A program made the translations under genes and the position numbers. This document shows, piece by piece, positions 42,140 through 51,573 of a stretch of DNA of 64,000 bases. The stretch lies in contig CAZVWJ010000002.1 of assembly GCA_964631325.1 (NCBI GenBank), forward strand, positions 5,848 to 69,847, read 5' to 3'. The notes under the pieces were generated by a model. It was not told where the DNA came from, ran no database searches, and saw nothing but the letters and a program-made list of their open reading frames with translations. How positions within the stretch are numbered: position 1 is the stretch's first letter; the number at the start of each line of letters is the position of its first letter. The stretch comes from an uncultured bacterium. Its GTDB lineage: Bacteria > T1Sed10-126.

Positions 42140-45100
42140 ATGACTGCTAAAAAACAAAATATCTGGTTCTGTCTGACCGCAGTATTTCTGCTGTTCTGGC
42201 TCGTTTTACCGGCCCGGTCTACAGATACTTTACCGGAAAAATATGTCTCTGCCGGCACCGATCAATTGAAAGAAAAACAGAAATACCAGCTTGCCGGTAT
42301 TTCTTTTGGCCCGGTGGAGGCGGTTGAAGAACAGGTCGAGGAGCTGGACAACAAAGCTAATGATTACTGGATAGCCCACTGGCAGGATAACAACTGTACC
42401 GGTGACGCCAGTGATCCAGAATGTGCCGGGGTCGTAAACTTCCCCCAGAAAGTGCTCGATTACTGGAAAAACCATCCACACGATAGACCGGATAGCTGGG
42501 CCGTATCAGTAAACTCCCCTTCAGCCAGCACCACTTCCAGTTCCCCGGACACGGTCGCTGAAACACACTCTAGCCCACTCTGGCGGGCTAAAACCAGTGG
42601 CGTTCTTACTTCCGCTCCGGCCGTTGATGAAGAAGGAACCGTTTACTTTGGCAGTTATGACAAAAAAGTTTATGCCCTGTATCCGGACGGGTCAGAAAAA
42701 TGGACTTTCACTACCGGTGGAGCTATCCACGCCGCCCCGGCTCTGGGAGCCGGCGACACGTTGTATGTGGCCAGTGAAGACAAATATCTCTATGCCCTGG
42801 ATACGGAAGCCGGGAACGTGTTGTGGAAATACAAAACCGCGGGGCGCCTGCACTCTTCGCCGGCCATCAGTTCCAATGGCATAATTTATGTCGGCTGTAC
42901 GGACAACAAACTGTATGCAATCCGTCCCGACAGCGACGGAGACGATGAGGGAGAGCTGGCCTGGACTTATACAACCGGTGGTCGGATAACCTCTTCCCCC
43001 ACTCTAAGCGCCGACTCTACAGTTTACGTCGGCTCCTGGGACAAAAATCTGTATGCGGTCCGTCCCGACAATAGCAATGACGGAGAAGGTGAATTAAATT
43101 GGAAAGTTTCCACCGGCGGCGAAATTAAATCATCCCCGGCTCTCGGAGCAGACGGAACTATTTATTTTGGCAGTCATGATAAACATCTTTATGCCCTCAA
43201 TTCTGACGGGACTGAACAATGGAGTTCCAACCTCGAAGGGGCAGTCTGGTCCTCACCGGTTATCGGAAGTGATTCCACTGTTTACGTCGGTTCCTGGAAC
43301 GGCAAGCTATATGCTCTCAACCACAAAGACGGCTCAACTGAGTGGACGTTTACCACCGGCGAAAGAATTGTTGCCTCTCCGCTGGTCGGAAGCAAACGGA
43401 TTTATGTCGGTTCTCACGACAATACTCTCTACGCACTTAATCCGGACACGCCCGGTGGGCCGGGAAGCTGGAAGTTCTCAACCGGGGAAGCAATTTTTGC
43501 CGGCACCAACCTCCGGGACACTTCCCTGTATGTGGTTTCAGGTGATAATTACCTTTACGCCCTTGAAGCCGACACTTCCGGCCTCGCCCAATCCAGTTGG
43601 CCAAAATTCGGCGGCAACCACAAAAATACCGGCCAGACGCCCGAACAACTACCGGAAGAATACAGCGGTCCGACCTGGTATGTGAACGACGATACCACAG
43701 CCGGCGACGTCTATACTTCAGCCCCGGGTTCAAATGAAAATCCCGGCAGTCCGGACGCCCCCTTCCTTACTATTTCCCGGGCTCTGGAAGCTGCCACCAC
43801 CGGCGATACTATAATGATCGATGCCGGCACCTACGGGGAAACGGTAGCCATTGACACCAACTCCCTGGCCCTGGTCGGTGCTGACTCCAGTCCGGCCGGG
43901 ACTGTCATAGATGCCGGCGACAGTTCCGCCGCCAGTAAATTGATTGTTCTTCGTTCGGATACCGTCACCAACCTTCAAATCAAAAATTTAAGGGTGGCCA
44001 ACGGATACTGGGGATTAATCCTTTACAACACAGATAACTCACTCGTAGAAAACGTTATGGCCACTTCTAACAAATCAGTGGGAATCGGTTTAGTAAACGG
44101 CTCTGAGTTTAACACCCTCAGCGAGGTCAGCACTTCCAATAACGATTCTGGTGGGCTGACGATAGATTCTGCAAACAACTTAGTTAAAAACAGTAATTTT
44201 TCAAAAAATGGGGATGACGGTTTAAGTATTGCCCTGTCGGCTACCGCCAACATAGTTTATAACAACCTGGTGAGCAATAACGATCAAGCCGGAATTAACG
44301 TCGAGGGAAGCGATAATGAAATTCGGCAAAACCAAATTATTAATAATAATCTCAGCACTACCAGTAATGATGGAGGGCTGGAATTAGGTGACGCAGAGAA
44401 CGGAGAAATCGCCGAAAACAACCTTGTGGTGCGGAATTTAATCAAGGACAACTATAATGGCATCGAGTTGAGAGGAACTAACCAAAATTTAATCCACAGC
44501 AACGAACTGGTAAATAATGCATATCATCTTTATCTTGAAGACACCGCCACTACCTTTAATGATACCTTTACCAAGAACAACCTGACCTCAGCCGGAGATT
44601 CACTGGTAATGGCTGTAGGCTTTTCAGGAACAGAGGCCAAACTGCTCAGAAACTGGTGGGGGATGACAGATGAAATCGCTATTCAGTCAAAAATCCAGGG
44701 ACCTCTGGCGGATGCAGTTGTATTTCAACCTTACCGATTAAACAAAGTGGACACAGGAACCGGAGCCGATACACTTGCTCCGGCAACACCGGTGGCTGAC
44801 ACCGTTGCTGGCAGCCACAGTGGAATAGCCCTGAGCTGGAACCAGGTTAACACTGACGAAAACAACAACCCGCTGACAGATTTTGCCGAATACAGGATCT
44901 ATAAAACTACTTCCGGGACTGAAACCGACTGGAAAAATAATGCACTCATGGTCAGCTCTATCAGCAGTGTTTCCGACACTGATTACGTAGATACTTCCGT
45001 CACCCCCGGCGAAACTTATTACTATCGAATTACTGCTGTAGACAGCGCACCGGCAGAAAACGAATCATTTTTTAGCAGTACCTTAATAGCCCAGGCCAAA

Positions 45101-48100
45101 CCCTGGTCCGGTCCCACCTGGTATGTAAACGATAACTATACGGGGGACGAAATTTACACCTCCACCGCCGGTTCAGACACTAACACCGGCGGCCCCTCGG
45201 ATCCCTTCCGAACCATTTCAGAAGCAATGAGTCATGTCGCCGCCGAAGATACTATCCTGGTCGACGCCGGCACTTACGGTGAAACTGTCGCCTTTATAAC
45301 TGACGGCCTCACTCTGGCCGGAGCCGGGTCAACCGCTACTAGCTTCGATTTCGGGGACAGCTCGACTGTCACTGCAGCCGTTGGTATTTATTCTGACACC
45401 CACAGCGGTCTGTTAATAAAAAATCTGAGCATTCGCAATTATATGATCGGTCTGTCTTTCAGCGGTGTTAGCGCTTCCCGGGTAGAAAACGTAACTGTTG
45501 AAAATTGTGGTGAAAGTGGGATGTACCTCTGGAATTCCGGCGGGGTTGTATTTAACCAGGTTGTTTCCAGGAATAATATTTTTGACGGACTTACCGTAGA
45601 TGGTTCAAAAAATATCAATGTTATTTCCAGTCGATTTACGGGCAACGACTCCAACGGACTTGTGTTTATTCAGTCGGACACAGCACTTGTTAAAGAAAAT
45701 CATCTCACCGAAAATAGCCAGGCCGGCCTTTTATTGGACAATACCTCAACTTCCCTGGCCAGCAATAACCTGATCACTGGCAATAACTCCGGTATGGAGT
45801 TAATTGGCGGATTCTTCAACGAAGTAATTCAGAACGATATCCGCAACAATACTAACTACCAGGTTTACAACACTACTTTTGACAACCTGTTTCGGAAAAA
45901 CAACCTCGTAGCCTCAACAACTAATCCGGACAGCGTAGTCAAGGATACTTCCTCGGGAATTGATTTTATCTACAACTGGTGGGGAACAACCGCCCACACA
46001 GCAATTGATACAAAGCTAACTGGTTTCGGGAGCTATGAACCCTACCGGCTTGGCCAAGTCGACACAGCCCCCGGAGCTGACACTATGGCATTCGCCTCAC
46101 CCATTGTAGACACAGCAGTGGTACTCGGTTCCGATACCGTAGAAGTTCGCTGGCAACAGATAACTACAAATGAAGAGGGCAGCGCGATGAGCGCTGATTT
46201 CAACAGTTATGTTATTTATCGTTCCACCTCCGATACCGTCACCGACTGGAAGCTGTATGAAATAGCCAGCCTTGCCGGTTCAATGAGCGACACTGATTAT
46301 ATTGATACCGATGTAACTCCCGGCCAAACTTACTACTATCGAATTACCGCCCTGGATGATCATACCCTGGACGGCGGCGACGGCACGGCTAAATTTGACA
46401 ATGAATCCTATTTCAGCAGTACAATCGCCGCCACCCCAACCCATTCCGGCCCCACCTGGTATGTGAACGATAACGATACCGCCGGAGACGTCTACACTTC
46501 AGCAGTTGGTTCCGAGACCCACACCGGCGGCCCCTCGGATCCCTTTCGAACCATTTCAGAAGCAATGAACCACGTCTCCGCCGGAGATACTATCCTGGTC
46601 GACGCCGGCACCTACGGCGAGACGGTGGCTATCGACACCAACTCCCTGGCCCTGGTCGGGGCTGATTCTCAAAGCACGATAATTGATTCACCCGGAGCTA
46701 ATGTCAATCTATACGCTTCAAACGCAGATAATATCTCCATTCGAAAATTGGGAGTCCAGAATAGTTCAGTTGGAATTGAACTTGATTCGATAACAAACTC
46801 CCTGGTTGAAAACGTTCACGTGGACACTGCAACAAATAATTCCTTGTATCTCTATCTTTCTGATTCTAATACAATTCGCTCTTCCTATTTTGGGCAGAGC
46901 GATAATGACCAGGTTATGCTCTATACTTCCAGCAATAACTTGATAGAACACAACATGGCTGAGAACGGTTGGGGACGAAGCTATTACCTGCAGGCTTCCT
47001 CTAATGACAATAAAATAATTAACAATCTGGCCCGGGCCGGACAATCCGGAATCGTTGTGCGCGGTTCCGATAATGTTCTGGTAGCGGATAATACAATCAG
47101 GGATATGTCGGGTTTCGGTATTAGCGCCCAGTTCTATCCGGTTAATTTAAGGGTCTTGAGAAATACCCTCTATAACGTGGGCAGTGTCAACCTGGAGTTA
47201 GAAGCTGACGGTTGTTACGTCGCTCAGAACACGGTGGACTCTCCCGGTAGCTGGGCTGTACAAACAAACGGTGGAGGAACAATTACAAAAAACAATATAT
47301 ACACAGGAACAATACTACCGGACAGCGGTGCTCTTAACTCAGGAGACTCTGTCGTTGACCTAACTCGCAACTGGTGGAATACCACTGACGAAAATCTGGT
47401 AGCCCGAAAAATTTACAATTCCGGCGCCGGAACCACAATATACAGCCCTTATCGGCTCGGCTTAGTAGATACCGGCGTCGGTGCCGACACTGTTGCTCCC
47501 GCCACTCCCGTTGCCGACACCGCCTTTGTGGTCGGCAGTGACACAATTGAAGTCCGCTGGCAGGAGGTCACCGCAGACGAAGACGGCAGCAGCCTCGATT
47601 TTAACCGTTACAATGTCCACCGTTCTAAATACGACACGGAAACCGATTGGTTAAGCAACACTTCTTCCAAAGGGTCGATAATGAGCGCCGGGGATACCAG
47701 TATTACAGACGATAACAATCTCATTCCCGGCCAGACCTACTATTACCGGGTCCTGGCCAAGGACGCTTCCTCGCCGGCAAACTCCTCTTTCTTCAGCGAT
47801 TCAATGAGTGTAACGCTACCTGCCTGGAACGGTCCTACCTGGTACGTAAATGATAACGACACCACCGGCGATGTTCATACCTCCGCCGTCGGTTCTGACT
47901 CCAACACCGGTGGACCAGACGATCCCTTCCGGACAATTTCCTATGCTCTTTCCCAGGTTTCAGCCGGGGACACCGTGCTCGTGGATGCCGGCACCTACGG
48001 AGCAACCGGCGAAACTATTACTCTAAGTGTTAACGATCTTGCCCTTGTCGGTGCTGACTCTGCAACCACGATACTTGATTTTGGAGATACTTCACCAGGA

Positions 48101-49201
48101 GCGGGGGCCGGTTTGTATGCATTAAACAGGCAGAATTTACAGATCCGCGATCTGGCAGTTAAAAATTCTTATCGCAATATCTACTGGGATGGAGTTACTT
48201 ATTCCAATATCGACAACGTCCGGGTTACAAATAGCGGTTACGTTGGTGTAACCCTGCTGGGCTCCGATACTAACGTAATTAAAAACAGTGACCTTTCAAA
48301 CAATTACGGCTACGGGATTTCATTCAATTCTGCCAACGATAATCAACTTAGAAATTCCAGCTTAACTTCAAATTATAATGATATTGAAATTAATTCCAGT
48401 TCTGACAATACAATAAGCGAAAATCACCTGACCGGGTCAGGGGCTGATGCTATCATTCTCTCTGTAGCCAGCCAAAACAAAATTTCAAATAATGTCATTG
48501 AAAATAGCCAGGGTGATGGAATTTATATTGCTAATTCTCAATTCAATACAATCGTCCAGAATGAAATCAAGAATAACAACGATTACCAAATTTATCAGAC
48601 CGGGACCACCGGAGAGATAAATCTCGCCACCAAAAATAACATCGCTGCTTCGGCCACCAACCCCGACTCGCTGGCTTACAACGACGTTACTTCTGATACA
48701 ACCAATTTTACTTACAATTACTGGAACAGCACCGACTCCGCCGTCATCAGCAGTGGGTTAGCCGGCGCAGGAAATACTCTCCAGGTCCCCTATCTATTGC
48801 GTAAAGTAGATACCGGCGTCGGCGCCGACACTAATCCGCCCGCAATACCGGCTAATGTCGTTGCTGACACCGTAGCCGGAGGAACAATCACCATAAGCTG
48901 GGACGAGGTTACTACTAACCAGGACGGCAGCACCATTGGTGACTTTGAAAAATACACGGTTTACCGGCTCAGAGCAGATACAGTTACCGACATAAAGAAT
49001 AACTACAATGATGTAAGTTATACCTCCGGCGGTGCCACTGATACTTCCGTTACCAACTCCCCCGGTGGACTTGCTTCGGGGGATACTTACTATTATGTCA
49101 TCACTGCTATTGACAATCCTCTCACGGACGGTGGAGATGGGACCTCCGACTTTATAAACGAGTCCTATTTCAGCACTATGATTAGTGTAGTCGCCCCGTA
49201 A
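42140..49201 (+). CDS. Giant (2353 aa) secreted surface protein: PQQ-type beta-propeller followed by four tandem [right-handed parallel beta-helix + fibronectin-III] modules
   Basis: Signal peptide, then 8 or more PQQ-like blades (YALxxDGSEKWTF.TGG.I.SSPA). Four modules follow, each opening GPTWYVNDNDT.GDVYTSA.GS...GGP.DPFRTIS.A......GDTILVDAGTYGETVA and containing NxxxxN beta-helix rungs and an FN3 segment (Y.IYR......W......DTDY.DT.V.PG.TYYYRI.A.D). Confidence 0.8.
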   Translation: MTAKKQNIWFCLTAVFLLFWLVLPARSTDTLPEKYVSAGTDQLKEKQKYQLAGISFGPVEAVEEQVEELDNKANDYWIAHWQDNNCTGDASDPECAGVVNFPQKVLDYWKNHPHDRPDSWAVSVNSPSASTTSSSPDTVAETHSSPLWRAKTSGVLTSAPAVDEEGTVYFGSYDKKVYALYPDGSEKWTFTTGGAIHAAPALGAGDTLYVASEDKYLYALDTEAGNVLWKYKTAGRLHSSPAISSNGIIYVGCTDNKLYAIRPDSDGDDEGELAWTYTTGGRITSSPTLSADSTVYVGSWDKNLYAVRPDNSNDGEGELNWKVSTGGEIKSSPALGADGTIYFGSHDKHLYALNSDGTEQWSSNLEGAVWSSPVIGSDSTVYVGSWNGKLYALNHKDGSTEWTFTTGERIVASPLVGSKRIYVGSHDNTLYALNPDTPGGPGSWKFSTGEAIFAGTNLRDTSLYVVSGDNYLYALEADTSGLAQSSWPKFGGNHKNTGQTPEQLPEEYSGPTWYVNDDTTAGDVYTSAPGSNENPGSPDAPFLTISRALEAATTGDTIMIDAGTYGETVAIDTNSLALVGADSSPAGTVIDAGDSSAASKLIVLRSDTVTNLQIKNLRVANGYWGLILYNTDNSLVENVMATSNKSVGIGLVNGSEFNTLSEVSTSNNDSGGLTIDSANNLVKNSNFSKNGDDGLSIALSATANIVYNNLVSNNDQAGINVEGSDNEIRQNQIINNNLSTTSNDGGLELGDAENGEIAENNLVVRNLIKDNYNGIELRGTNQNLIHSNELVNNAYHLYLEDTATTFNDTFTKNNLTSAGDSLVMAVGFSGTEAKLLRNWWGMTDEIAIQSKIQGPLADAVVFQPYRLNKVDTGTGADTLAPATPVADTVAGSHSGIALSWNQVNTDENNNPLTDFAEYRIYKTTSGTETDWKNNALMVSSISSVSDTDYVDTSVTPGETYYYRITAVDSAPAENESFFSSTLIAQAKPWSGPTWYVNDNYTGDEIYTSTAGSDTNTGGPSDPFRTISEAMSHVAAEDTILVDAGTYGETVAFITDGLTLAGAGSTATSFDFGDSSTVTAAVGIYSDTHSGLLIKNLSIRNYMIGLSFSGVSASRVENVTVENCGESGMYLWNSGGVVFNQVVSRNNIFDGLTVDGSKNINVISSRFTGNDSNGLVFIQSDTALVKENHLTENSQAGLLLDNTSTSLASNNLITGNNSGMELIGGFFNEVIQNDIRNNTNYQVYNTTFDNLFRKNNLVASTTNPDSVVKDTSSGIDFIYNWWGTTAHTAIDTKLTGFGSYEPYRLGQVDTAPGADTMAFASPIVDTAVVLGSDTVEVRWQQITTNEEGSAMSADFNSYVIYRSTSDTVTDWKLYEIASLAGSMSDTDYIDTDVTPGQTYYYRITALDDHTLDGGDGTAKFDNESYFSSTIAATPTHSGPTWYVNDNDTAGDVYTSAVGSETHTGGPSDPFRTISEAMNHVSAGDTILVDAGTYGETVAIDTNSLALVGADSQSTIIDSPGANVNLYASNADNISIRKLGVQNSSVGIELDSITNSLVENVHVDTATNNSLYLYLSDSNTIRSSYFGQSDNDQVMLYTSSNNLIEHNMAENGWGRSYYLQASSNDNKIINNLARAGQSGIVVRGSDNVLVADNTIRDMSGFGISAQFYPVNLRVLRNTLYNVGSVNLELEADGCYVAQNTVDSPGSWAVQTNGGGTITKNNIYTGTILPDSGALNSGDSVVDLTRNWWNTTDENLVARKIYNSGAGTTIYSPYRLGLVDTGVGADTVAPATPVADTAFVVGSDTIEVRWQEVTADEDGSSLDFNRYNVHRSKYDTETDWLSNTSSKGSIMSAGDTSITDDNNLIPGQTYYYRVLAKDASSPANSSFFSDSMSVTLPAWNGPTWYVNDNDTTGDVHTSAVGSDSNTGGPDDPFRTISYALSQVSAGDTVLVDAGTYGATGETITLSVNDLALVGADSATTILDFGDTSPGAGAGLYALNRQNLQIRDLAVKNSYRNIYWDGVTYSNIDNVRVTNSGYVGVTLLGSDTNVIKNSDLSNNYGYGISFNSANDNQLRNSSLTSNYNDIEINSSSDNTISENHLTGSGADAIILSVASQNKISNNVIENSQGDGIYIANSQFNTIVQNEIKNNNDYQIYQTGTTGEINLATKNNIAASATNPDSLAYNDVTSDTTNFTYNYWNSTDSAVISSGLAGAGNTLQVPYLLRKVDTGVGADTNPPAIPANVVADTVAGGTITISWDEVTTNQDGSTIGDFEKYTVYRLRADTVTDIKNNYNDVSYTSGGATDTSVTNSPGGLASGDTYYYVITAIDNPLTDGGDGTSDFINESYFSTMISVVAP
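43669..49198 (+). repeat. Four tandem intragenic repeats of about 1.35 kb (module starts near 43669, 45111, 46449 and 47832)
   Basis: Nucleotide-level identity between modules, for example 46449-46680 against 43669-43900 and a near-identical 45-nt run at 45182 and 46520. This indicates recent internal duplication. Confidence 0.7.
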
Positions 49202-49268
49202 ACTAAAAAAATCTTCAAAAACAATCAAACTCTAATTTCTATAAATGTGTGCAGATGTTAGATGTTTG

Positions 49269-49457
49269 TTTAACCTAAATTGAGCGATTCTATGGTGAAG
49301 AGAAGAACATATTGCTCTCCGATGGATTTTTGTATTCTTTAGGGTTCAGGATGAACCCGTATTAAAGAATACATACCTCAGAGCAGTCCGGATGGCTGCG
49401 AGAATGAATCCGGAGAGTTATGTGTTCTTCGATAATAATCGCTCAATTTAGGTTTAA
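49269..49457. repeat. Nested-palindrome structured element of about 190 nt (candidate complex terminator, ncRNA or MITE) with perfect 20-bp terminal inverted repeats
   Basis: TTAACCTAAATTGAGCGATT at 49269-49289 pairs with AATCGCTCAATTTAGGTTTAA at 49437-49457. Inner complementary pairs include gaagaacatattgctctccg / cggagagttatgtgttcttc, gtattctttag..ttaaagaatac, ggttcaggatgaacc and tccggat..atccgga. A T-rich run follows. Confidence 0.6.
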
Positions 49458-49488
49458 TTATATTTTTCTTTTGTCAGGATAAATATTT

Positions 49489-50310
49489 ATGAACATTTTC
49501 AGTGACTTGCGTAAATTTCTCTTTATTGTATTGACTTTTCTTGCCTTTACAGCCCTTCCCGCCAGAGCACAATCTCCGGGCCATTTTACTCTCGGCTACG
49601 GAATCTCCAACTTTGAATACACAGAACCCAAGATGACGGAATCCGGCACACTCCAGCACCTGCAGGCAAAATACGAAAAATTTAAAGAACATCATTATAT
49701 TGGTATGGATGGCAACCTCTGGGCCGGTAACCTGAAATACGATGGAGAAACACTCGAAGAAAATCCTCGTCCTGTTACCACGGAAACTGATGATTTTATC
49801 CTTACAACGAATTTACGGGTGGGCACACCACAGCCTCGGAAAAGCGGAGTTCTTATTCCTTACCTGGGATTAGGATACAGGTACTGGAACAATGTAATCA
49901 CTGAAAGCAATATAACCGCTCGCACTGAACGAACCACCCAGTATTTCTACTCACCACTTGGTTTTCTACTGGCAAGCAATTCTGCGAGATTCGGCAAAAC
50001 AATTCTTAAAATGGAATATCTTTACTTCTGGGCGGGAAAAGTAACCACTCAATTTGGTAACGCACCAGAGTTAAATAATGACCAAAACCAGGGAAAAGGC
50101 GGAAGGATTGCGCTAACATTTTTACTCGGAGGTCAACAGAAAATTAGTCACAGCCTGAGTATATTTTTCAACTACTGGGACATTGAGCCTTCGGAATCCG
50201 ATTCTATCCTGGTGGATATCGATAACGACTCCACAAAGGAAAACGTGGCTTTTTATGAACCGGCCAACAGCACGGCAATTATCGGAGCTCAGTTAAATAT
50301 TACGTTTTAG
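49489..50310 (+). CDS. Outer-membrane beta-barrel protein (porin-like, 273 aa)
   Basis: Signal peptide (FIVLTFLAFTALPARAQ), amphipathic beta-strand periodicity and a C-terminal ...QLNITF ending in Phe. Confidence 0.6.
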   Translation: MNIFSDLRKFLFIVLTFLAFTALPARAQSPGHFTLGYGISNFEYTEPKMTESGTLQHLQAKYEKFKEHHYIGMDGNLWAGNLKYDGETLEENPRPVTTETDDFILTTNLRVGTPQPRKSGVLIPYLGLGYRYWNNVITESNITARTERTTQYFYSPLGFLLASNSARFGKTILKMEYLYFWAGKVTTQFGNAPELNNDQNQGKGGRIALTFLLGGQQKISHSLSIFFNYWDIEPSESDSILVDIDNDSTKENVAFYEPANSTAIIGAQLNITF

Positions 50311-51284
50311 ATATCCGCCGGATCAGCCGGTTCAACCTGGGAAGGCTTAATATTACTTAAAACCCGCTGAAGTCCCCGGACGTGTGCCCCCAATTGCCGG
50401 CGGGCCTTGAGGTTTGAGTGGGGATCATCACTGGCTTGGCTGTGCCGGACTTTAAGCCGGTCATATTCACTTCTGATTTTACTTAAGCGATCCCGGGGAA
50501 TTCCTTCCTTAATTATACTCTTGAGATGAGTATACAATTTCTTTGCCGCGCCGGCAGCAGCTTTTAAATCCGAGTAATCAACCGCATAGTCATAATCATG
50601 GTATTCGCTTTCATGCGGGGATTTAAACTTAATCTCGACCAGGCCCGCAGTTAGTATTTCCCGGGCCGTAGCCTGTAGTTCCTCGGCCATTTTTGGCGGT
50701 CGGACCTGCAAATCCTTACTCCTGGGAGTGGCCAGCAGGTTTTCTAATTTTTCTCCTGACATTTTCATCCCTTTGGAAAGACCGGCCACATCCGGGTTCA
50801 AAGTTTTGCATATATTTCTATGGCCCCGCCACTTTTCTTCTTCCAGAAAATGTAAAAGAAGCAGAGCTGCATCATAAAGTAAGTTTTGAGTGCTTTTCAG
50901 ACAGGCTAAATCTTCCGTTGTGACTCGTACCCGCCGGGACAAAACCTCAAGGATCTTCCGACGGAATTTGTGACTTTTTTTCAGCAGGTTATCGAACTGT
51001 TTTTCTCCAAGTCGCAAGCAAACTGTATCTATTCTGGCTTTGACCGCGGCTGACCGGTCAGATTCCTCTCCCAGCAGGGCCATTTCTCCGACCAGTTCTC
51101 CCGGCCCAAGGGAAGTTATAAAACTAACTTCATCATCTTCCTTGAGCACTTCCACAAGTCCCTCCTGGATAATATAAAAACTGTCCCCGTGGTCCCCTTC
51201 TTTAAATAAATATTCGTCGGGTTCATAGTTTTGCCGATACTCTTCAAAACCTTCAAGAAGTGAATTTTTCACTTGTCTCACCAA
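50307..51284 (-). CDS. Cyclic-nucleotide-binding domain protein with uncharacterised C-terminal domain
   Basis: N-terminal cNMP-binding fold (YLFKEGDHGDSFYIIQEGLVEV...GPGELVGEMALL...RSAAVKA). C-terminal roughly 200 aa have no recognised motif. Confidence 0.65.
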   Translation of the reverse strand: MVRQVKNSLLEGFEEYRQNYEPDEYLFKEGDHGDSFYIIQEGLVEVLKEDDEVSFITSLGPGELVGEMALLGEESDRSAAVKARIDTVCLRLGEKQFDNLLKKSHKFRRKILEVLSRRVRVTTEDLACLKSTQNLLYDAALLLLHFLEEEKWRGHRNICKTLNPDVAGLSKGMKMSGEKLENLLATPRSKDLQVRPPKMAEELQATAREILTAGLVEIKFKSPHESEYHDYDYAVDYSDLKAAAGAAKKLYTHLKSIIKEGIPRDRLSKIRSEYDRLKVRHSQASDDPHSNLKARRQLGAHVRGLQRVLSNIKPSQVEPADPADI

Positions 51285-51429
51285 CCTGAAAATCTAAATA
51301 TAAAATTACTCAGTCCCACTCATATATCGTCACGGTAAATGTTCTAACCTGATTACCCTCAAGTCAGCCTATATCGATAAAACAGTATATTTATATCATT
51401 TTATTCTGAATAAGTATAGGTGATTTTTA

Positions 51430-51573
51430 TCACATCAAAAACTTTCTAACGCACTGTCATTGCCGGGCTTGACCCGGCAATCCATAATTCAAAGATCGAA
51501 AGATCGATGGATTCCGGGTTTCCGGCGCTTCGCGCCTTCACCCGGAATGACGTTTTAGTGTCATTAGAAAGTT
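51430..51573. mobile_element. MITE/REP-like palindromic element, copy 2 (inverted relative to copy 1)
   Basis: AACTTTCTAAcgcacTGTCATTGCCGGGCTTGACCCGGCAATCC ... CCCGGAATGACGTTTTAGTGTCATTAGAAAGTT. The 29-nt and 16-nt termini are identical to the reverse complement of 10222-10325. It has extended inverted repeats. Confidence 0.5.

Follow-up and report, generated by a model that had tools for sequence, protein, structure and literature searches.

A palindromic element between a giant surface-protein gene and an outer-membrane protein gene is very probably a 179-bp MITE with IS1380-type ends

The stretch of DNA analyzed here, 64 kb in length and referred to in the following as the window, carries a giant gene for a beta-propeller/beta-helix protein, followed in the same direction by a gene for an outer-membrane beta-barrel-like protein (the OMP gene). 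A short, strongly palindromic element lies between the two (Table 1). The ATG of the OMP gene is preceded by the sequence AGGA at a distance of 9 nt. The 273-aa product of this gene matched the Pfam families OMP_b-brl and Autotransporter below their curated cut-offs, and a search of 5.8 billion clustered proteins at E ≤ 0.001 returned no homologue but the protein itself; elsewhere, it was found only as itself and on one 2-kb Logan contig. Direct reading revealed no other hairpin between the stop codon of the giant gene at 49201 and the element. A promoter scan called no sigma-70-like promoter in or just after the element.

Table 1. Features of the locus in window coordinates; the last row gives copies of a related subfamily in the coordinates of their own loci.
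Feature	Position	Strand	Remark
Upstream gene, 2353-aa beta-propeller/beta-helix protein	42140..49201	+	Stop codon 72 nt before the element
Left target-site duplication TTTAA	49269..49273		Same pentamer abuts both tips
Left TIR CCTAAATTGAGCGATT	49274..49289	+	16 bp, perfect
Interior, non-coding, highly self-complementary	49290..49436		MFE structures
Interior stem	49302-49320 x 49412-49430		MFE
Interior stem	49324-49329 x 49405-49410		MFE
Interior hairpin	49331-49373		MFE
Right TIR AATCGCTCAATTTAGG	49437..49452	-	Exact reverse complement of left TIR
Right target-site duplication TTTAA	49453..49457		Direct repeat of left copy
T-rich flank TTATATTTTTCTTTTG	49458..49473	+	Host sequence of AT-rich target region; possible U-tract
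Downstream gene, 273-aa outer-membrane beta-barrel-like protein	49489..50310	+	Start 36 nt after the element
159-nt subfamily copies	L021:1253-1411, L074:6929-7087, L078:2020-2178, L105:1062-1220, +12 loci

An earlier, sequence-only reading of the window had reported perfect 20-bp terminal inverted repeats (TIRs) at this place. The inverted repeat is indeed there, far beyond chance, but its perfect part is 18 nt long: a repeat search and direct reading both gave full complementarity between 49272–49289 and 49437–49454, with the sequence AACCTAAATTGAGCGATT. This 18-mer has exactly two matches in the window, one per strand, compared to a chance expectation of 0.04 matches even at three mismatches. 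The outer arms, 49269–49289 and 49437–49457, comprise 21 nt and are 95% complementary. The string given for the left arm in that reading had lost one T relative to the actual sequence of 49269–49289, TTTAACCTAAATTGAGCGATT. Its boundary, written as TTAACC...GGTTAA, is visible in the DNA, but is neither an inverted repeat nor a 4-bp TTAA target; it consists of a TTTAA duplication abutting CC...GG tips. The outer TTTAA pair, a direct repeat, seems to prolong the inverted repeat owing to the palindromic nature of TTAA, and the lone mismatch within the 21-nt arms is the point where the direct repeat ceases to look inverted. The element proper spans 49274–49452 and is 179 bp long, with perfect 16-bp TIRs.

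Only ORFs of 20–22 aa overlap the 179-bp element. A tblastn search of the 64-kb window found no IS1380-type transposase, and no second terminus was present in about 71 kb of host DNA, comprising the window and 7 kb from an 8.7-kb Logan contig. The sole other assembly of the locus, Logan contig L001 (equivalent to window positions 49426–51469), starts inside the element; the break lies 11 nt before the right TIR and may reflect trouble with the repeat or palindrome in that assembly. With the element and one TTTAA taken out, the remaining spacer of 103 nt is AT-rich and has no hairpin, and ...GATGTTTGTTTAATTATATTTTTC... is the empty site reconstructed between the two genes. No convincing −35/−10 pair was seen by eye, either at the right end of the element or in this reconstructed site. 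There was no junction-spanning match to the empty site among the retrieved loci, and with the OMP gene lacking homologues, no orthologous or empty site could be obtained.

The nested internal pairs that had been described within the element were found by both the repeat search and the MFE structures. Positions 49302–49321 and 49411–49430 form a 20-nt pairing that is 85% complementary, and two of its three exceptions become G–U pairs in RNA. Within it, 49331–49341 and 49363–49373 are fully complementary over 11 nt and enclose GGGTTCA/TGAACCC, and the MFE structure includes a small further hairpin at about 49377–49402. When folded as RNA, the + strand of the region reached −85.5 kcal/mol (z = −10.9) and the − strand −75 kcal/mol (z = −10.8); folded as DNA, the + strand gave −48 kcal/mol (z = −10.9), and the DNA fold was about equal in strength on both strands (z ≈ −11). 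The fold is far better than that of the controls (z ≈ −11), as the earlier reading had expected of an RNA-folding check. The interior alone, without the TIRs, still gave z = −10.1. The + strand, sense with respect to both neighbours, folds 8–10 kcal/mol better than the − strand, with five G–U pairs in the element compared to two on the − strand, a difference that is not significant. A T-rich run follows the element at 49458–49473, as had been noted before. The stem ahead of this U-rich tract has 18 perfect pairs, with ≈33% G+C, and closes a structured "loop" of 147 nt; with a "loop" of that length, the site was not called in the terminator scan.

The interior (49290–49436) showed no similarity to the 67 other small elements described below, to any retrieved locus or to the rest of the window. 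Proteins encoded in the window matched the retrieved loci in tblastn at no more than ≈40% identity. Scanning the metagenome with an interior 20-mer gave no matches, nor did a scan with the TIR plus six interior bases, and blastn of a 301-nt region against phage and plasmid collections found no match. The covariance-model scan proposed in the sequence-only reading produced no credible Rfam family: no Rfam 15 model matched at gathering score anywhere in the window, and on 49150–49550 at E ≤ 10 there were only chance-level matches (E 0.5–7, 12–18 bits).

The terminus, on the other hand, is widespread. The exact 18-mer was present in at least 119 genome stretches from a collection of bacteria and archaea with one genome per species. 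Judged by record title, the matches listed fall into roughly 15 phylum-level lineages. These include Desulfobacterota and other "delta" MAGs; Scalindua and Brocadiaceae (Planctomycetota); Bacteroidales and other Bacteroidota; Nitrospirota, Nitrospinota and Gemmatimonadales (Gemmatimonadota); Acidobacteriota, including the isolate Acanthopleuribacter pedis; Chlorobium, Melioribacteraceae, KSB1, Caldisericaceae and Deferribacteres; and Calditrichia, Chitinispirillaceae and Ca. Parabeggiatoa. A binning artefact is ruled out because several of the matches sit on contigs of 0.1–4 Mb. Many matches are found no more than about 100 nt from a contig end, which is to be expected of a dispersed repeat. 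The sole match in the viral collection, on IMG/VR contig L123 (7–24), is at the very end of the contig and is uninformative on carriage by phages.

When two inverted termini were required 65–266 bp apart, with few mismatches allowed, at least 68 small elements were obtained, including the one in the window. The commonest size among the matches listed was 159–161 bp. Alignment of the flanks showed that the conserved unit starts with CC and ends with GG. Perfect 5-bp duplications flank 46 of the 68 small elements among the matches listed, compared to 7.6 expected from permuted partners, and a control shifted by 5 nt gave none among the same 68. The first three bases of the duplication, which were unconstrained by the search pattern, are identical in 49 of the 68 (14.8 expected). 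The duplicated pentamer varies from copy to copy and includes TTAAA, TTTAA, TATAA, TTTTA, TTCAA, TGAAA, AACAA and others; the 18-mer used in the search contained the flanking "AA", which skews the target-site logo to T-T-x-A-A. With one exception, the 68 elements are located between ORFs of 90 aa or more.

The same 16-bp ends are shared by at least 25 unrelated interiors: the 68 elements were grouped into 25 interior clusters, one of which is common to Planctomycetota and Desulfobacterota MAGs. The interiors of the family fold with a median z of −3.85, and 72% are below −3. When 18 loci that carry family members were searched against Rfam at gathering score, only tRNAs were returned. Elsewhere the family is multi-copy, with six loci in one Bacteroidales MAG (L027, L045, L073, L092, L117) and four in Thermodesulfobacteriota MAG063. 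Copies can also be closely spaced: two are separated by 90 nt at L027:2892-3303, three lie between successive ORFs within 8 kb at L014:1627-7179, and a 4.3-kb contig (L035:33-4293) has termini at both ends and another copy inside. A full-text literature search, with partial coverage, yielded nothing linking IS1380 to MITEs or giving the terminus sequence, and we do not claim that the family is undescribed.

Longer elements with the same ends, of 1.4–1.7 kb, carry IS1380-family transposase genes. Using ORFs lying between two termini as queries, tblastn placed an IS1380-type transposase just inside a terminus at nine loci: L002, L017, L024, L042, L043, L057, L058, L077 and L087. Two elements have a terminus at both ends, L057 4826-6561 (1736 bp) and L024 1730-3173 (1444 bp). 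Both matched the Pfam family DDE_Tnp_1_4, and both are decayed, with frameshifted or truncated transposase genes and no clean duplications. An intact ORF of 471 aa was found at L058, its end ≈200 nt from an exact terminus; the protein scored 242 bits against NF033539 (IS1380 family transposase, NCBIfam), for which the cut-off is 180. The nearest transposase in the plasmid collection, with 53% identity, belongs to an IS on pDCAR1 of Solidesulfovibrio carbinolicus, a unit of 1727 bp with the ends CCTAACCTGAGCGATT and CCTAAATTGATCGTTT. In full-length elements (L058:3237-4971, L121:380-2106 and L122:412-2064), the exact CCTAAATTGAGCGATT is mostly the IRR, downstream of the transposase gene, and the opposite end is more variable. 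At L057:4826-7794, one IS is nested in another: the frameshifted element interrupts an IS1182-like transposase gene at its end, and the pentamers flanking the insertion differ (TGTTA and TTGTA).

The largest of the interior clusters is a sister subfamily of 159 nt, of which 16 copies were aligned (Table 1). It folds as one rod and had no Rfam match. Compensatory double changes were found in 14 of 61 pairs, a number reached by none of 500 shuffles, and slid controls gave 1–7. All copies fold 14–36 kcal/mol better on the strand starting CCTAAGTT, and the consensus contains ten G–U pairs, no A–C oppositions and tandem G–A oppositions. These results suggest selection on the RNA or on one DNA strand in this subfamily. 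Template switching in quasi-palindromes could be a selection-free source of compensatory changes in MITEs; it would not account for the excess of G–U pairs over A–C oppositions. The two ends of the 159-nt subfamily differ consistently at position 6 (G or A), as the IRL and IRR of ISEcp1 do at position 5.

The combined evidence identifies the element in the window, with high confidence, as a 179-bp MITE with IS1380-type ends that inserted at TTTAA, any effect on the host transcript being a by-product of the insertion. MITEs are recognized by small size, TIRs, direct repeats, the lack of a transposase and IS-like ends (PMC11578231). The element has a length of 179 bp, below the usual ≈600 bp, together with TIRs, a TTTAA duplication and ends that match those of an IS; the assignment of these ends to IS1380 is based on the partner DDE transposase, the ISEcp1-like tip and the 5-bp duplication. 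A MITE had been one option in the sequence-only reading, and it is the one borne out by the IS1380-family termini, by the 5-bp duplication and by the occurrence of the same ends on many small elements with duplications of their own. From its anatomy and its family we infer that this copy was mobile and is one of several, even though the host DNA covered (≈71 kb) holds a single element whose interior is unlike that of all retrieved elements. The element is a fresh member of an ordinary class of mobile DNA, and its interest is chiefly the breadth of the family, together with the possible selection on RNA in sister subfamilies.

We propose that an IS1380-family DDE transposase, supplied in trans, would have recognized both 16-bp ends and inserted the 179-bp unit into the ≈103 nt that then separated the giant gene from the OMP gene. 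A 5-nt staggered cut at an AT-rich pentamer, once repaired, would have given the TTTAA duplication. The perfect state of the ends and of the duplication suggests that the insertion is fairly recent or still mobilizable. The element is probably transcribed together with the giant gene, because both genes are on the + strand and there is no promoter-like site in the 36-nt gap between the element and the OMP start. In such a transcript, the RNA of the element is predicted to fold at about −83 kcal/mol into a Y-shaped hairpin, closed by an 18-pair stem and followed by UUUAAUUAUAUUUUUCUUUU. The hairpin and the U-rich tract could stop or reduce read-through to the OMP gene, and the hairpin could also block 3′ exonucleases and so protect the upstream mRNA, or serve as a substrate for RNase III.

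Could the structure have arisen for a purpose at this place? A free-standing structured ncRNA gene, or a terminator evolved in situ whose stem is IS-like by resemblance only, would fit the very strong fold (z ≈ −11) and the intergenic position, and both options had been raised in the earlier reading. However, all 16 terminal bases are those of the IS1380-type ends found in at least 119 genome stretches, a 5-bp direct repeat flanks the element, and as DNA either strand folds equally well. With regard to origin, the termini and the duplication point to mobile DNA rather than to an intrinsic terminator that evolved in place. The ncRNA option also lost ground, having no Rfam family at gathering score or credibly at E ≤ 10 and an interior without homologue in all searches made. 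We regard such an origin as highly improbable. The main alternative is that the element never moved as a small unit and is what is left of a full-length IS1380-family insertion after its interior was lost in situ. This would suit a single copy with a unique interior, and internally deleted relatives do exist, such as the 1444-bp L024 element with its truncated transposase gene. The 147-nt interior, however, is unlike either the transposase-coding or the subterminal sequence of full-length relatives, and it is almost fully self-complementary (z = −10.1), which is typical of the small elements of the family. Since a random deletion would not leave a self-complementary interior of 147 nt, we consider a remnant of this kind improbable, if less so than an origin as ncRNA or terminator.

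A MITE may nevertheless have been co-opted after it inserted, its hairpin and U-rich tract now acting as terminator or 3′ stabilizer of the 7-kb mRNA and setting the expression of the OMP gene. That co-transcribed MITE hairpins might affect transcripts is an idea already put forward (PMC11578231). At this locus, the upstream gene has no other hairpin between its stop codon and the element, and the stable closing stem of 18 pairs stands directly ahead of TTTAATTATATTTTTCTTTTG. The better-folding strand, by 8–10 kcal/mol, is the sense strand of both neighbours, as it is for 25 of 40 family members with co-directional neighbours, and for 13 of 18 where the difference is at least 10 kcal/mol; the compensatory, strand-specific structure of the 159-nt sister subfamily points the same way. 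On the other hand, the strand difference in the window depends on five versus two G–U pairs and is not significant, and the orientation bias in the family (25 of 40) is suggestive but also not significant, and the ORF calls behind it are crude. The scan called no terminator here, and the U-rich tract is simply the AT-rich target favoured by the transposase. On balance, we consider co-option unlikely, though it deserves to be kept in mind. More tentatively still, the family as a whole might consist of cross-phylum MITEs, mobilized by IS1380-type transposases, that carry selected, strand-specific RNA interiors (terminators, processing sites or small RNAs) and spread them into intergenic spacers. 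The basis for this idea is that the same 16-bp ends enclose at least 25 unrelated interiors, most of them strongly structured, along with the compensatory changes, the G–U pairs without A–C oppositions and the one-sided folding of the 159-nt subfamily; at the copy in the window, the strand signal is weak. We judge it rather doubtful.

If the element is the MITE that we take it to be, the palindrome in the window is mobile DNA and not a dedicated regulatory RNA, and the result is mainly one of annotation. It would mark a recent insertion, which may have broken a coupling between the giant surface-protein gene and the OMP gene behind it. The 16-bp terminus makes it easy to recognize an IS1380-type IS/MITE family, which extends across many phyla and often breaks metagenome assemblies. 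Should the RNA interiors prove to be selected in general, transposons would be distributing RNA structure modules between phyla.

Several classes of small intergenic repeats invite comparison. REP/BIME repeats consist of short palindromes that lack target duplications and go with an IS200/IS605-like transposase. A REP/BIME-type (RAYT-associated) repeat was considered for the element and rejected, since the 5-bp duplications and the IS1380-type DDE partner rule it out. A retron or other RT-associated ncRNA was considered as well and not adopted. The Correia/NEMIS elements of Neisseria and the ERIC elements are intergenic, ≈100–200 nt long and bounded by TIRs, and their hairpins, once transcribed, can act as terminators or undergo processing; they have no sequence relation to the element in the window.

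Target duplications in the IS1380 family are 4–5 bp long. A point of reference is ISEcp1, which produces 5-bp duplications (PMC2887853), the same length as in the element in the window. The ends of ISEcp1, read from a Klebsiella plasmid (L122), are CCTAGATTCTACGT (IRL) and CCTAAATTCCACGT (IRR), and the 8-nt tip of the IRR, CCTAAATT, is identical to the tip of the element. In contrast, the transposases of the family described here are only ≈24% identical to that of ISEcp1, and the element differs from ISEcp1 and other IS1380-family insertion sequences in having neither a transposase nor a detected outward sigma-70-like promoter. IS1380 transposases have been described as the prokaryotic outgroup of the piggyBac superfamily (PMC10813416), which the element resembles in its termini that begin with CC against a TTAA-like, AT-rich target. 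A piggyBac-type element was itself rejected, since with a 4-bp duplication the two sides would not agree (left TTAA, right TTTA), whereas the 5-bp TTTAA fits.

The closest parallel in build is MITEPye1 of Paracoccus yeei, which is related to IS1182 (PMC11578231). Both are small, have TIRs of an IS type and direct repeats, and lack a transposase gene; both are intergenic and, if co-transcribed, are predicted to fold into a long RNA stem–loop. The element in the window differs in its IS1380-type ends and in its 5-bp duplication at T-T-x-A-A-like sites, and the IS1380-type family to which it belongs is found in many phyla and has at least 25 unrelated interiors enclosed by the same 16-bp ends.
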